The notes under the pieces were generated by a model. It was not told the DNA's origin, ran no database searches, and was given only the letters and a program-made list of their open reading frames with translations. This document shows positions 6,220-62,766 of a DNA stretch of 64,000 nucleotides, piece after piece. The translations under genes and the position numbers were made by a program. This DNA is from Octopus vulgaris (lineage: Eukaryota). The stretch lies in the NCBI GenBank assembly GCA_951406725.2, contig OX597820.1:81282001-81346000 (forward strand), read 5' to 3'. Position 1 is the first letter of the stretch. Each line of letters starts with the position of its first letter.

Positions 6220-6605
6220 TCTTTATATATAAAAGAGAAGTTGTGTCTGTCTCCTACGATTTAGATTCCTAACTACTCCCACATTTTGCGGTGCAGTTTA
6301 ACCAAAACAGGGTATCTTATAGTTGTGATTCATATCGAGCCCTTCTGGGTATTAGGATGAGTCTACGATTTAAAAAAAAAATTACCATAATTTTTTTCCA
6401 TTTTAATGCATTTTCTTCGCTATTATATAAGGGAAGTAACTCTCTAAAAATGTCTACGATGAGTCAACGATTTATAAAAAATTTTACCATCATTTTTTTT
6501 CCATTTTTAATGCATTTTTTTGCTATTTTTTGGCTATAACTCTCTAAAAATGCTTATATAGTTATTTCCCTTACAAACCCGAGCAATGCCGGGCGATACT
6601 GCTAG
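6220..6605 (+). mobile_element. Non-autonomous Helitron, copy 1
   Basis: 5' TC, 3' CTAG, inserted in A|T with no TSD. Subterminal GC hairpin CCCGAGCAATGCCGGG. Internal partial tandem duplication. Near-identical copy at 13573-13973. Confidence 0.85.
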
Positions 6606-6749: not shown

Positions 6750-7050
6750 GATGGAAGATGGAAGATACGAGAATGTTTATTGATCACTACAATTGTTTCA
6801 ACCCATCTAACATTGATTATTCATGAGTGGGATACTGAAAGGAGTTCATAGCTATGGACTCTGTGTGGGCAGTCATCTAAGAGTTTTTGTTCATCTTGAT
6901 GCTGACATAAGTTCCTTGTCTTTCCTGATGAGAAGGCGGCATAATGCACCCCTTATTCCTTCGAAATTAGGAATATGCAGCCTTCGAAACATATGTCGAA
7001 AATAAAGGAATTTTGTTAAATCGTCGTTCAACTCCATTCTTTCATTTATT
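6750..7050 (+). mobile_element. ~300-bp hammerhead-bearing unit (Penelope pLTR or retrozyme-like)
   Basis: Hammerhead followed by AATAAA, the tail TCGTTCAACTCCATT and (TA)n. The 3' ~130 nt are homologous to 57215-57350. Confidence 0.65.
6921..7001 (+). ncRNA. Type I hammerhead ribozyme with enlarged stem II
   Basis: Stem I TTTC/GAAA; core CTGATGA 6925-31; stem II GAAGGC...GCCTTC (6932-6985); GAAA 6986-89; palindromic stem III ACATATGT; GUC cleavage triplet ending at 6997. Confidence 0.85.
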
Positions 7051-8559
7051 TATATATATATATATATTGTTAGTGCTGTCAAGAGGGAGTACTAATCTTT
7101 TAAACCATCAGTTGAAATGACATTGGGATCAACTTTCTTTTTTGCTTCTTCCACATTGATGAAATCAATGAGAATGCTATCAATCAAATATTATTAGCAC
7201 TGACATTTTGTGTTATAGTGGTTAATCATAAATTTTAAGGAATCATTAGAAAAACAAGTGTCCTGACCAAGACTCGGAGACAGTAAAAATCAAAAACATA
7301 TATATCTAAAAGAAAATTAAAATAATTAAGAGGAATTAGAACTAAATTAATAATTATTTAAAAAATATACCTAATTATTAAAGCAGTTCCCATTTCCCAG
7401 ATATTTGCAAGTTAAAGCTTGTAAAGCTTTAGAATGAAATAAACATGAAGATATTTAGAACTTTATAATAAATTGCAGCAGAATCAGTGCTGTAACTTAA
7501 GGCTATTATCATATTCTTTATTTACTCTAAGAGGCTAGAACTCCTGTACACACTTCTCTTTTCAACCATATGGTCTGCTTTCTCTTTCAATAATCTTCAC
7601 AAGACCACAGGCTTGCATTTGTTATTATTTCCAATATGTGTTTGTTATTGTACTGCTTCTCTCAATACTTTTCACTGCTACCAAGACAACTATTATTCAT
7701 TGCATGGTACACATTGCAAGAATTAATCTCAAACTATTTTATATGCTTAGAAAAATTGCCATCATTTACTATTAAGTAGAGCTCAGGCTGACAACAAAAA
7801 AGTGACACAACAGAAAGATTCTAGGACAGGGAAACAGTAAAATTTTGGATAAAATACCTCAAAGTATTTAGTTATGTTCCTTAACATTCAGAGATCAGAT
7901 CTAACCAGTAACAACTGTGATTTTCAATATTACAATTACCAGTAAGTTTGGGGTCCATCTAGTCATTGCCAACAAACATGTAACCTTCCACCAATTTAAG
8001 AAATCATTAACTACACTACTTTAATAAACAATTTTTCAATCTAGCACTAATTAGTTGGATTAAGAATATATCAAACTTTTTATTTTACATCATTCCACTT
8101 ATGTAAAAAGGAGCTTGTCTTAAATCTTAGTTCCCCTCTCCAAATAATTTTTGTTAATTTCCAATTTCTATATTGTAAACATAATTGCTCTCTACATCAT
8201 TACTTGTACAAATCAGGAAGCCAGTTCTTTGGGCAAAAAAATTAGTTTACATTATACTTTTCATTCATTAGAAAATAATTTATCAGTTGTTCCACCTTCA
8301 GCTCTAGCTGTGCCAACACTCATACAAAATTAATTAAAGGTGACACATCAAATACATGTACAAATAACAGATGTCTAAATGGCCTTTGTTAAGTTTATCA
8401 TCAAGATAAATTAAACATATTATCAATAATTACAAATCTGAAATGTAATTTAATTACATACTTATAAATGAAATTACTTATTATATATCCCTAATAATTA
8501 GTAGCACTAGCAAAGAACTGTAAATCTTATGATTACTTAAGAAAAGCTAGGCCTCTCTT

Positions 8560-54998: not shown

Positions 54999-55333
54999 AA
55001 ACATATATTAGGTTGTACAGAAAACAGATTCTATCACATGCCAGGGGAAGAAACTAACAGCATTGAGAACCTGGAAACATCACATTTATTGCACCAATTA
55101 TGAGTTGCTCATGTTTCTTTGTTGCCATCTGGTTGTTAATATTATTTAACTCCAAGTCATCCTCCATCCAGCAGGCCTGAAATCATGGATATTCCAACCA
55201 TGACCACCCCACTTTAAGATATCCAGCACTACATCATTCAGCAACATCTCCTTTGTTAGATTATACAGTGCAACCTAGCATGTTAAGTGACAATATAGAG
55301 GTTTCTAGCATTAGCTTGTTGCTACCTGGCAGC

Positions 55334-55777
55334 TGCTAGAGTCACATCTGGTTTCTGCTAGAGTCACATCTGGCTTCTGCTAGAGTCACATCTGGTTGCT
55401 GCTAGAGTCACATCTGGTTGCTGCTAGAGTCACAGCTGGTTGACGCTAGAGTTACAGCTGGTCGATGCTAGAGTTACAGCTGGTCGATGCTAGAGTTACA
55501 GCTGGTAGATGCTAGAGCCACAGCTGGTCAATGCTAGAGTCACAGCTGGTTGATGCTAGAGTCACAGCTGGTTGATGCTAGAGTCACAGCTAGTTGATAC
55601 TAGACTTACATCTGGTCAATGCTAGACTTACATCTGGTCGATGTTAGACTTACATCTGGTTGCTGCTAGAGTTACATCTGGTTACTGCAAGAGTCACATC
55701 TAGTAGCTGCAAGAGTCACATCTAGAAGCTGCAAGAGTCACATCTAGAAGCTGCAAGAGTCACATCTGGTAGCTGCC
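55334..55777. repeat. 22-bp minisatellite, about 20 copies
   Basis: Unit TGCTAGAGTCACATCTGGTTGC with positional variants. Confidence 0.97.
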
Positions 55778-56160: not shown

Positions 56161-56965
56161 TAGGGTGTTCAGGCTAAATTTAATAATTTTTATGTCTTCT
56201 TTTTTCAGGAACAGCATAACGTATTGGTGAAAAGTCAATGGCATTGGAAAGTATAAATAATATTAAATTTGTAGCTGAGGAAGAGCTGCCTGACATGGAG
56301 TTGCTTGTATCTTGATGATTCATGCTGGGTGTCAAAATGCTAACGTCATTACTACTGCTCAATGCTCTGTTGGCATTGTAAAGGTTATAAGGAATGACAT
56401 GGACAGGTGCAACAGAGACTGCAAAGCTGTGGGAAGGGACACAGCAGGCACTCTGACTGTGTCCATGCACCAGAGTTCATCCACCAATTGATGTGTAGGC
56501 CTTACGCTCAATGAAGACAGCTATGTGAAGTTGTAGGAGACTTTGGTCAAACCCTGGCTGGAGAAGGTTGCTGCTGGAAGGTCATGTGTGTGACAACGTG
56601 ATTCAGCTCCAGAGTCGAGAGGGGTCAAAGAATTTGTACAATTTCACCAGCCCTAATTTCTTGCTTCCTAATTCCTTCAATTATAATCTTATGGATTATA
56701 ATGTGTGAGGTATAGTTAAGAAAGACACCAACTGCTCTGGTGGCCAAAATCAAGGAGGAGTTTGAAGATCTTCCCAGAGACACAGTGAGGAACACATGTG
56801 TCAGGTTTTAGAGCTGTCTTGAGGCCATAGTGGAAGCTGAGGGCAGCTATTTTGAGTAAACTGTTATCTAGTTGATATCAAGTTTATTTTTTAAAATACA
56901 TTTATATTTGTATGGGACATTGTGTTTTATTTTTCCTTTACACAAACTGTCAAACTCTCCCTATG
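56161..56965 (+). mobile_element. Degenerate Tc1/mariner element of DD37D (maT)-like type
   Basis: Remnant motifs Q..DSAP (~56595-56610) and FLLPNSFNYNLMDYNVxG (consensus WPPNSPDLNPxDY). TAGGG.../...CCCTA ends. Confidence 0.65.
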
Positions 56966-57072
56966 TATACACACACATTTCATTACATACATGAATATAT
57001 ATCTGTGTGTTTGTGTGTGTGCATGTGTGTAATAATCTATCTATCTATCTATATATATATATATGTATATAT

Positions 57073-57356
57073 TGTGAAATAGAAAGATGAATAATCTTGT
57101 TGCAGATTAATCAAAAGTTTAATCAAGAGTTTGGCCATGGGCTCTTAGGAGCCTCGTTCGATTTGTCTTGCTCCGCCTCTGTTCTGTTTTTGTTTTTTTC
57201 CAACGGATTTCCTATTTCTTCCTGAAGAGAAAGACACAATATGGTCTCCTTATTCAATCGGAATTTGGTAAATTGTGCCTTTCGAAACACGTGTAGAATG
57301 CAATAAAACGATTTCTGTTCAATCTTCGTTCAACTCCATTTCTTCAATTCACTAAT
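57073..57356 (+). mobile_element. ~285-bp hammerhead-bearing unit inside a (TA)n tract
   Basis: Bounded by (TA)n on both sides. Hammerhead, AATAAA and TCGTTCAACTCCATT tail are shared with 6750-7050. Confidence 0.7.
57219..57298 (+). ncRNA. Type I hammerhead ribozyme with enlarged stem II
   Basis: Stem I TTC/GAA; core CTGAAGA 57222-28; stem II GAAAGaCACAAT...ATTGTGcCTTTC; GAAA 57284-87; palindromic stem III ACACGTGT; GUA triplet ending at 57295. Confidence 0.85.
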
Positions 57357-57564
57357 AATATATATATATATATATATAGAAACATATATATACACACACA
57401 TAAATCAGAAAATGTATATATATATTCACACGCTCACAAACACAAATCTATACATGCATTTATGCACACTGGCTCAGTATACATTTACATAAATACAAGC
57501 TACTTTGAATAAAACAGTGTTACGTCTTCAGAAGTGTGTTGTTGGCTCTATTTTGTTGAGGCCT

Positions 57565-58257: not shown

Positions 58258-59758
58258 TTACTGTTTTAATGGGAGAGAGGGTGTAGTTTCACCCTCCTCT
58301 TTTTTGTTTGCGAGATCATTTTTTTTTGCGAATTGCCTGTATAGATGGCTTGAAAAGTTAATCTGTAACGGGCCAACGTCCTCCGAAAAAGATTTTTTTA
58401 GTTCAAAATAGTCAGAGTTACCTATAGTATAAAATTTGACATTTTCAAGAATAGTATTATTTACATCTGTTGAGATATATTTTTTCGCCGATTTCATTAA
58501 AACAATTTTGTCTCTTAATAGTTTATAATTTTTGTTTATTGCCGTGAAGGTGTTTCTCTTTTTTATATTAGGCGATTGTGGAGGGGGGGTGCTTGTTGGT
58601 GTGTGTATGCTTGTAGAAGCGTGGGTGTTTGTAGGTGTATGTGTGTGTGTTTGTGTGTGCTTTTTACAGTGTGTGTGTTTTTTTGGCTACGTGTGTGTTT
58701 GCGACTGTATTTGTGGGTGTGGGTGTGCTTGTCTGTCTCGGAGCATAGTCCTGTGTATCCGAAGAAGGTGGGTTTTTCCGTTTCCGTCTTCTTTTTGAAG
58801 GTTCCACGGTGACCCACTCCTGGATGTTGTTGTTGTTTTCTCCCGCTGTCGGCTGTACTTCGGCAATTGGGGTGAGTGACGTGGCTGCTATTTGTAGCGG
58901 TGTGGTCATTGTCTTTGGCGGCGTGCTTGCCTCTTCTGCTGCGTTTTCTTTGGCTGTCTTCTTACAGCTCGACCTTATGTGGCCTTTCTTGCCACATTTG
59001 TAACATCTGGGCTTTCTCCCCTCAACTACCACCATCATGCTGGTATTTTCTCCAATTGTAAGGGAACTGGACAATGTTTCTAAGTCTGAGGGGTTTGCTT
59101 GGATGACAAGCTCTAAATCTTGTCCAAACCAGTTCATGTGGTGGTATCTCTTAGATTGAAGAATTGAAATTTCTTCTTCTTTCCCTACGAGAATAGCGGC
59201 TATGACAAAGGCCACATCTATTTCGGGTGGTGTATCCATGACTGTGATTTTTGAAGTTCTCTTTCCGAAGTAAGTCGGCTGGAGAACTACTTCTTCCGAC
59301 TTTAATGTCAATGTTGAATGTTCCCTAGCTTTTTCTTCGCTAGGGAAACACACCTCTACAGTGTCGAAGCGACTACCCCTCGTTATGTAACTTGTTTGTT
59401 GCCATATCAGCCTCAAGCATTTTTCTATGGCTTCCCTCGGTACAAAGTCGATTTTTTTATTTTTGACATTATATGTTTTATATATTACCGTCTTTCTCTC
59501 CATAACGTAAATTAATTCACTGGGAGGGAGCAACTTCACATTATCACCTTCTTTGTTTAGTAAACCTAGGTATTTCTTTAATTCTTCTTTGTTAATAGCT
59601 ATATTTTCGCAGGGGCGAGTTGCTGCACTTGCAAAATTTATTTTTGACTTTTCCTGTTGTGTAGTAGCTTCTCTAGACATCTTGTCGTCTGCTTTTGTAA
59701 CGCGCGCGTGAGACGCCTCTTTACTTTTACCTTCCTCCTCCCACCTATTCGCCTTCAT
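58258..59758 (-). pseudogene. LINE ORF1 gag-like nucleic-acid-binding protein, frameshifted
   Basis: ATG at 59758, CYKCGKKGHIRSSC zinc knuckle, basic NLS-like KRRRKRK. The frame is lost in an (AC)-rich linker at ~58600-58700 and resumes to a stop at 58258. Confidence 0.85.
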
Positions 59759-59975
59759 GCCTTCAAACAAATTTTCAGTTTTCCTCCGACTCGGAAGAAA
59801 TTGGTGGCAAATTCATATTTTTCGTCGCTTCCCCCTTGAAACAAGCGGGAAATAATAGCAAAACTCTGCTGCAACAGCAGAAAAGAAGTGGTCTCGACGA
59901 CCAAAACAGCAAATTTTCAAAATTTTCAGCACAAAAACAATATTTCACTGCGGAGCAAAGAATAACACGACCGAT

Positions 59976-61279: not shown

Positions 61280-62766
61280 TGAGAGAGAGTTAGTTTAGAT
61301 GAGATGCAGTTTGGGTTCGTGCCAGGGAAAAGTACCACTGATGCTATATTCCTGGTAAGGCAGCTGTAGGAGAAATACCTAGCCAAAGATAAGCCCCTGT
61401 ACCTGGCTTTTGTTGACATGGAGAAAGCCTTCGACAGGGTCCCCCGATCCCTTATCTGGTGGTCAATGAGGAAACTAGGGATAGATGAATGGTTAGTGAG
61501 AGCTGTGCGAGCCATGTACAGGGATGCTGCTAGTAAGGTGAGGGTTGGCAACGAGTACAATGAAGAATTCCGGGTAGAGGTAGGGGTCTACCAAGGCTCA
61601 GTCCTCAGCCCCCTCCTATTTATCATAGTCCTCCAGGCAATAATGCAGGAATTCAAGACAGAATGCCCCTGGGAGCTCCTCTATGCTGATGACCTTGCTC
61701 TAATTGCTGAGTCACTATTAGAACTGGAGGAGAAGTTTCAGGTGTGGAAGCAAGGATTAGAATCGAAGGGCCTTAGAGTCAATCTAGCTAAAACCAAAGT
61801 CCTAATAAGTAGGAAGGTAGACAAATCACAAACGCATTCAGGTAGATGGCCCTGCTCGATCTGTAGAAAATGTGCAGGTAGAAACTCTATAAGATGCACC
61901 AAGTGTAAGCTATGGTCACATAAGAGGTGCAGCAATGTCAAAGGAAGGCTAACTAGGAAGATAGTCTTTGTATGTGGCAGATGCTCAGGAGCAATAAACA
62001 CTGAAAATGATCCGAGACCAACTTCTGCCACATTCCAGGGAGAAAAACTAGAAATAGTTGATAGCTTCTGTTACCTAAGTGACCAAGTCAGTAGCGGGGG
62101 CGGGTGTGCTGAAAGTGTAACTACTAGAATAAGAATAGCTTGGGCAAAGTTCAGAGAGCTCTTACCTCTGCTGGTGACAAAAGGCCTCTCGCTCAGAGTA
62201 AAAAGCAGACTGTATGACGTGTGTGTACGAACAGCCATGCTACATGGCAGTGAAACATGGGCCGTGACTGCTGAGGATATGCGTAAGCTCGCAAGAAATG
62301 AAGCCAGTATGCTCTGATGGATGTGTAATGTCAGTGTTCATACTCGACAGTTCATACCTTGAGAGAAAAGCTGGACCTAAGAAGCATCAGTTGTGGTGTG
62401 CAAGAGAGACGTTTGCACTGGTATGGTCATGTGGCGAGAATGGATGAAGATAGTTGTGTGAAAAAGTGCCACACCCTAGCGGTTTAGGGAACCTGTGGAA
62501 GAGGCAGACCCAGGAAAACCTGGGACGAGGTGGTGAAGCCGTTTACCAGACTCGTCTGGCACCTGTGCCGGTGGCACGTAAAAAGCACCCACTACACTCA
62601 CGGAGTGGTTGGCGTTAGGAAGGGCATCCAGCCATAGAAACATTGTCAGATCAGACTGGGCCTGGTGCAGCCTTCTGGCTTCCCAGACCCCAGTTGAATC
62701 GTCCAACCCATGCTAGCATGGAAAGTGGACGCTAAACGATGATGATGATGATGATGGTGATGATGA
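61280..62766 (+). mobile_element. 5'-truncated RTE-clade LINE with (GAT)n tail
   Basis: Motifs QFGF..STTDAIF, FVDMEKAFD, QGSVLSPLLF, LYADD, HGSETW, LHWYGHVARM and GRGRPRKTW, then a 3' UTR ending in (GAT)n. Confidence 0.95.
61418..62317 (+). pseudogene. RTE reverse transcriptase fragment with inserted PHD-like zinc finger
   Basis: 299-aa ORF with YADD, bounded by premature stops. C4HC3 motif at 61853-61984. Confidence 0.9.

Follow-up and report, generated by a model that had tools for sequence, protein, structure and literature searches.

The 64,000-nucleotide stretch of Octopus vulgaris DNA analyzed here (the window) carries two hammerhead motifs, one near 57 kb and one near 6.9 kb, and both are truncated 3′ ends (pLTRs) of different subfamilies of a young Penelope-like retroelement (PLE). 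The 57 kb motif is real, structured and mobile, yet it is a piece from the end of a retroelement whose kind is already known, and an ordinary product of Penelope-like retrotransposition. We consider it highly probable that it is the type I hammerhead sequence carried by the pLTR of a young, Hydra-like Penelope element and that a truncated insertion with two arms left it inside a (TA)n tract, with its predicted cutting likely limited to dimers and to a minority of transcripts. The initial annotation had assigned both motifs to a mobile non-coding family, either a retrozyme or a solo Penelope pLTR; the non-coding and retrozyme assignment is not supported and the pLTR alternative is borne out, since in longer copies of both families the flanks run upstream, on the same strand, into an ORF with reverse transcriptase (RT) and GIY-YIG endonuclease (EN) domains.

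The 57 kb hammerhead can be read directly from the forward strand at positions 57219-57298: it is of type I, with an intact core, a palindromic stem III and a 55-nt stem II. The 5′ strand of stem I (TTC, from 57219) and the core CUGAAGA (57222-57228), which the descriptor scan also finds, take up 57219-57228 and are followed by stem II (57229-57283, GAAAG...CTTTC with CACAAT/ATTGTG), which consists of a 12-bp lower helix (57229-57240 with 57272-57283, one mismatch), an internal loop and an upper hairpin. Then come the core GAAA (57284-57287), the self-complementary stem III with the palindrome ACACGTGT (ACACGUGU; 57287-57294), A17 at 57295 with a GUA triplet and the predicted cut after it, and the 3′ strand of a stem I of only 3 bp (GAA, 57296-57298). 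The sister hammerhead (6921-7001, forward strand) has the core CUGAUGA at 6925-6931, a 54-nt stem II at 6932-6985 (GAAGG...CCTTC with GCATA/TATGC), the palindrome ACATATGT (ACAUAUGU), a GUC triplet and a predicted cut after 6997. The type I core (CUGANGA / GAA / UH with stems I, II and III, stem I open) is present in both, and a generic hammerhead descriptor applied to both strands of the 64 kb gave three matches, at these two sites only. At the window motifs, an Rfam scan returned no hammerhead among 24 matches at E<=1, a result that concerns library matching and is not a biological criterion.

The two regions align at 73% identity over 155-165 nt (E 5e-19 under default and 9e-25 under permissive scoring), which confirms the proposal of the initial annotation that the 57219 motif is a diverged homologue of the 6921 motif. 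The differences and likenesses it had listed are likewise there to be read: the shared inner motif and tail occur in both window copies, GAAGG/CCUUC in stem II corresponds to GAAAG/CUUUC and GCAUA/UAUGC in the upper helix to CACAAU/AUUGUG, U is replaced by A at N7 and GUC by GUA in the triplet, the palindromes differ as given above, and the stem II lengths are 54 and 55 nt. With the 12-bp lower helices of stem II placed in register, four pairs show two-sided changes (G-C/A-U twice, U-A/A-U and A-U/U-A), one pair is broken and one is gained. When two 57 kb copies are cofolded, the palindromes are predicted to pair as an 8-bp duplex (-10.3 kcal/mol), and two 6.9 kb copies are predicted to pair likewise, in line with the dimer model described in PMC4209133. 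Against shuffled sequences, the single 57 kb motif folds no better than expected (z -0.33; its stem II alone, z -1.2), and the 6.9 kb motif has a z of -2.4.

The 57 kb copy is a 289-bp composite of an inverted and a sense arm lying inside a TCTA/TA tract, the left part of which is a (TCTA)n/(TA)n microsatellite (57035-57072) and the right part a (TA)n tract (57357-57378). The inverted arm (57073-57122, reverse strand, 50 bp) corresponds to about +167 to +216 of the element counted from the cleavage site, ends at the distal end site described below and is 96-97% identical to the opposite strand of intact elements (L078 and L031). The sense arm (57122-57361, forward strand, 240 bp) is the 3′ UTR/pLTR of a PLE from about -173 to +65, ends at the proximal end site and is 96.7% identical to the ORF-bearing L078 and 98% identical to L031 and L032. 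Without an ORF of its own, the copy is most likely inert as a mobile unit. The 6.9 kb copy (6848-7055, forward strand) is a sense arm, the 5′-truncated 3′ end of the sister subfamily, of about 208 bp and with no inverted arm seen; a (TA)n tract (7051-7067) follows its proximal end site, and it is 96-98% identical to three loci (L044, L050 and L060), all of which have the end of an ORF upstream on the same strand. The ~285-300-bp unit suggested in the initial annotation thus dissolves into a two-arm composite and a shorter copy with one arm.

The genome around the window is 2.8 Gb long and microsatellite-rich, with 1,557 candidate places for the 57 kb unit and 2,283 for the 6.9 kb unit (40 scored for each). 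With an RT segment as query, 11,883 candidates were obtained; of 150 that were scored, 20 sit in an 899-codon open frame, and the twenty regions retrieved share one layout, in which the ORF is followed by 757 nt from the stop to the predicted cut and then by ~268 nt up to the next ATG. One locus holds a tandem trimer of three 3,624-3,625-bp units that are identical but for 1-nt indels. The 3,624-bp parent unit has a single ORF (e.g., L077:1016-3700) of 895 aa from the first Met, with an RT domain and, C-terminally, a GIY-YIG domain. The protein contains the motifs RIRW, SDKT, FDIASFYPSI, PMGSSD and YRDD and, at the C-terminus, a Y..YVG endonuclease core with CxxC..E and CxH, a set that agrees with the Hydra ORFs published in the supplement of PMC8557442. 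RIRWL, in which the K of RWK is replaced, and SDKT were found in all three full-length ORFs examined, and in an alignment judged by eye CxxC and CxH stand beside a conserved E/N in four of four ORFs, with no CCHH in the EN. The 895-aa ORF alone matched no Pfam family and no PDB RT; a profile of 23 homologues matches a retron RT (E 0.007), and RVT_1 and GIY-YIG are each matched by three of the 23 members. The library scores are weak and the motif alignment is clear: a single ORF with RT and C-terminal GIY-YIG, as in EN+ PLEs, is present. Other EN+ PLE traits present are the pLTR/tandem arrangement, the inverted truncated arm, the tail at one end and the hammerhead in the pLTR. Contigs of three presumed-RNA runs and one other cover the pLTR, with no bearing on strand, ends or level; none of the four joints in contigs of four runs is GT..AG, and contigs of this kind cannot show that a pLTR intron is absent.

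The parent resembles the Hydra clade as described in PMC8557442 (Hydra-1_Obim, Penelope-n_HM) in its single ORF, in RW and DKT, in a divergent RT4, in the C-terminal GIY-YIG with CxxC and CxH, and in its (TA)n targets, 3′ hammerhead and inverted truncated arm. It differs from that clade in the linker, where the CxCX5C zinc finger was found in none of 16 ORFs (L065-L082; two are the same genomic copy), whereas CxCx4-7C is present in 23 of 26 database homologues. The linker is N/S-rich and, at 165-205 aa, about three times longer than in the homologues (about 50-85 aa), and the unit measures 3.6 kb compared with less than 3 kb reported for Hydra elements (PMC8557442). Because both the linker CxCX5C and the length below 3 kb fail, we file the parent as a Hydra-like EN+ PLE and not as a member of Hydra.

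The ends of the insertions tell how such copies are made. A 34-mer taken from the tail has 849 exact occurrences, and 91 of these arms, all from contigs C1 and C2, were examined. The 3′ ends of 47 arms fall near +54 to +69 (proximal site) and those of 43 near +212 to +220 (distal site), with a single arm ending elsewhere; these two fixed end sites, ~155 nt apart, delimit the PLE 'tail'. The sister family has the same two ends, at about +50 and +200. (TA)n follows 90 of the 91 arms, so that the mobility and the (TA)n association proposed in the initial annotation both stand, and 88 arms start upstream of the cut and read through the scissile bond. In an unbiased sample the arm lengths are continuous, from +6 to beyond -1,200. 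One insertion lies inside the CA/TA tract of a host repeat, six other occurrences of which (five places) hold the plain tract, and therefore in that case the target predates the insertion. The 16 best look-alikes of the 57 kb copy have inverted arms starting at +138 to +174 and sense arms starting at -145 to -184; since they differ in both arm lengths, they are separate events and not one amplified unit. Amplification of a 276-bp unit was accordingly rejected, the junctions of the look-alike copies being different.

No sharp peak of 5′ ends is seen at the cut, and therefore the genome gives no cleavage footprint: 12 arms start at +1 and 16 at -1, compared with 9 at +16 and 7 at -35, and several of those 28 starts are internal deletions while three represent one duplicated event. 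Pairs in which both arms end near the cut are no commoner than symmetric junctions elsewhere (about 7 of 26 pairs). In the same set (L085-L154), 20 of the 91 arms have 5′ ends between -25 and +6 and 7 have them between -75 and -25; this cluster may stem from a pause of the RT at the foot of stem II or from two palindromes folding back.

Whether the fold has been under selection was assessed with 30 subfamily representatives, 16 of which came from a search whose pattern fixes the core, which makes core invariance circular for these 16. Pairs were counted without the upper hairpin of stem II, which MAFFT had aligned out of register. Pairing is preserved in 87.9% of 660 cells, compared with 36-51% in slid registers, and 11 of 22 pairs show two-sided change; two of five pairing measures are not clearly above shuffles (38/500 and 451/500). 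RNAalifold, unaided, recovers the lower helix with two-sided change in 5 of 10 pairs. Relative to a custom tree-aware null, kept/(kept+broken) is 0.58 vs 0.35 (p 0.002) and tips are paired in 90% vs 72% of cases (0/500); among 21 single pairs the best p is 0.008 and none is significant after correction. The selection on RNA structure put forward in the initial annotation is thus upheld for the aggregate, in which pairing is kept beyond the tree-aware null (p about 0.002), and not for any individual pair. Stem III is paired in 99.2% of 120 cells, and its hexamer is self-complementary in 17 of 22 motif clusters, in the form of seven different sequences, in a search that did not require palindromy; four of the five exceptions are singletons with a stem I of 0-1 bp. 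Selection for the fold would have acted on active master elements while the subfamilies diverged, and the covariation between the window copies would be its trace.

By analogy with Poseidon, the 57 kb copy may have arisen in the following way. It was shown in vitro for Poseidon PAc of Anolis that both target strands are nicked and extended, that RT starts at two internal sites bounding the 'tail', that uncleaved RNA is the main substrate and that the hammerhead cuts only with the protein present (PMC11167929). In the octopus element, the endonuclease would similarly nick both (TA)n strands, reverse transcription would begin at two internal sites on an RNA continuous across the ribozyme, and both cDNAs would stop early and be joined back to back, which would give the inverted and sense arms at 57073-57361. 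We infer this mechanism for the 57 kb family because it predicts what is seen, namely two fixed ends, arms joined back to back and insertions that read through the cut. Where units are transcribed in tandem, two hammerheads could pair their palindromes into stem III and release unit-length RNA. The likeness to Poseidon PAc extends to the two end sites bounding a tail and to insertions that read through the hammerhead; the tail is about 150-155 nt long here, compared with the 30-40 bp given for PLEs in PMC11167929, and the ATG lies about 268 nt past the cut and not inside the ribozyme.

Alternatively, cleavage might be efficient and a circularised 3.6-kb RNA might serve as the template, so that cDNAs cross the cut and form tandem multimers. 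We regard this as unlikely, although it is the model proposed in PMC4209133 and would account for the identical tandem trimer, for the more-than-unit copies and for the more-than-unit copies of the 583-nt family described below (8 of 26 loci), because the same DNA is explained by uncleaved multimeric transcripts, and because insertion by Poseidon drew mainly on uncleaved RNA and persisted in vitro when the ribozyme was mutated (PMC11167929). It is still less probable that the fold is kept mainly as a platform for protein binding or folding, or as a promoter or leader element, with negligible catalysis. The lack of a 5′-end peak at the cut and the 3-bp stem I of the youngest subfamily point in that direction, as does the 12-bp lower helix II, which, judged by the fold given in PMC4209133, would displace loop II from its usual contact with loop I; however, the core nucleotides and the UH triplet persist in elements chosen by RT similarity alone, and stem III palindromy maintained through seven hexamers fits dimer catalysis better than a protein site. 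Finally, a non-autonomous retrozyme of ~285-300 bp, amplified as its own unit via small circular RNAs, is very improbable: 16 top loci do match the whole 276-bp query at 92-100%, at one locus (L108) two short arms on the same strand flank a (TA)n stretch, with a period of about 235 bp, another (L150) has a 592-bp duplication, and the genome does hold, at other places, a genuine tandem family that has a long-stem-II hammerhead and no ORF, but the arm starts vary across the 16 loci, arm lengths form a continuum in the unbiased sample, none of 34 loci with the tail of the 6.9 kb family has a same-strand neighbour, and among 132 loci (some overlapping) with the tail of the 57 kb family the motif-search neighbours lie at 3.6 kb (four) and 592 bp (one).

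The L108 arrangement is the only retrozyme-like one seen in the 57 kb family and is doubtful. Non-LTR retrozymes consist of two or more short ORF-less tandem units, each with a hammerhead, and are further marked by abundant circular RNAs of 170-400 nt; the window families were rejected as such on the tandem arrangement, and their parent has an ORF. When copies were checked for Penelope ORFs beside them and for tandem arrays, as the initial annotation had advised, the link to the ORF was found, and the only repeated same-strand period at loci with the 57 kb family's tail was 3.6 kb.

PMC4209133 describes pLTR hammerheads, which mostly occur as single truncated copies, and PMC8557442 calls hammerheads universal in Hydra elements; general background is given in a review (PMC6765202). 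The objection that a catalogued Penelope pLTR hammerhead would remove the novelty thus largely applies at the level of the class. Within the searchable literature no earlier account of the 57 kb family or of a long-stem-II class turned up, and the novelty of the long stem is not secure. The PLE minimal hammerheads of PMC4209133, including the D. virilis Penelope variant, share with the window motifs the type I fold, the short helix I, G10.1-C11.1, a palindromic helix III with predicted working as a dimer, and an occurrence mostly as single copies tied to truncated PLEs, with opposite-strand pairs 100-700 bp apart. Their helix II is 6-8 bp long, in contrast to the 12-bp helix, internal loop and hairpin found here, and in both window motifs A9 is directly followed by G10.1, with no extra unpaired base. 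Stem II has 53-60 nt here, whereas in File S2 (PMC8557442) none of the 26 Hydra rows exceeds about 24 nt, and stem III here, unlike that of the Hydra rows, is a loopless 8-nt palindrome. The long stem II has a precedent in the same file, where PLE-X1_sMoe has one of about 53 nt and PLE-X1_sTam likewise has an extended stem II region; these are EN-less, rDNA-targeting spike-moss elements, in which the feature is an isolated deviation and not a genome-wide class (PMC8557442). Non-LTR retrozymes (PMC7229834; preprint 10.64898/2026.07.22.740005) resemble the window families in the type I hammerhead, low GC and PLE kinship, and their organization as short ORF-less tandem units fits the 583-nt family and neither window family. 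The main text of the octopus repeat-annotation paper (PMC13282606) reports young Penelope families and does not contain 'hammerhead' or 'Hydra'. Hammerheads of PLEs are known as such; the differences seen here lie in the length of stem II (47-60 nt), in the missing linker zinc finger despite continued insertion into (TA)n, and in the long tail.

A degenerate long-stem-II pattern gave 8,769 matches genome-wide, and the same pattern reversed, as a control, gave 10. Motifs with a stem II of 47-60 nt number 8,769 or more, the figure being a lower bound because further families escape the pattern. Other, unrelated long-stem-II hammerhead families (L203-L232, L205, L242, L245 and others) carry the palindromes CGGCCG, CAATTG and CGCGCG. 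A separate family, family F (L246, G000:C6:67328562-67332018; L233-L257, L160, L169), has a 583-nt cut-to-cut unit without an ORF (longest stop-free stretch 69 aa) and a hammerhead with a 60-nt stem II, a 6-bp stem I and the palindrome ACGUACGU; its copies are ~98% alike (2,459 candidates), at 8 of 26 loci they form tandems with a period of 583-584 bp, and its two-arm insertions have ends near +194 and +300, in (TA)n. This retrozyme candidate carries the PLE signature of two start sites, seen as two-arm insertion ends, and family F looks like a young retrozyme moved by PLE proteins. Family G is old, with copies about 80% alike and 1,912 candidates. An ORF link was looked for in both, and a Hydra-like match was present in 1 of 25 loci of family F and 3 of 30 of family G, none shown to belong to the same element.

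The 57 kb family matters moderately, and stronger leads adjoin it, namely family F and a lineage that has lost the zinc finger yet still targets (TA)n. The role of the hammerhead in EN+ PLEs is stated to be unclear in PMC8557442, and the thousands of young copies in this genome show that insertions derive from RNA continuous across the cut. According to a hypothesis in PMC8557442, the linker zinc finger guides insertion into (TA)n, and an active lineage that has no such finger still shows (TA)n at 90 of 91 arms. The core search in PMC8557442 allowed a spacer of 7-17 nt, which stems of 47-60 nt would escape, and thus 'HHR-less' calls in other genomes may need re-examination. Family F provides structural evidence for PLE-driven retrozyme mobility. 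Tentatively, the long stem II may be a functional module of its own that defines a structural class of PLE hammerheads, one that short-stem descriptors would miss, spanning the zinc-finger-less Hydra-like lineage, unrelated families and the 583-nt retrozyme. If so, it will become testable what docks the PLE reverse transcriptase on its RNA, whether PLE proteins move retrozymes and whether (TA)n targeting needs the linker zinc finger.

Other features of the window include pieces of other retrotransposons, namely a 315-aa RVT_1 fragment (E 1e-21; 61370-62314, forward strand) and, at 58667-59812 on the reverse strand, a frame of 382 aa that contains a zinc knuckle, as well as a 22-bp tandem repeat of 20 copies (55332-55776) and a 102-bp duplication (6356-6552). 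The segment directly left of the insertion (56500-56860) possibly resembles the decayed end of a Tc1/mariner transposase.
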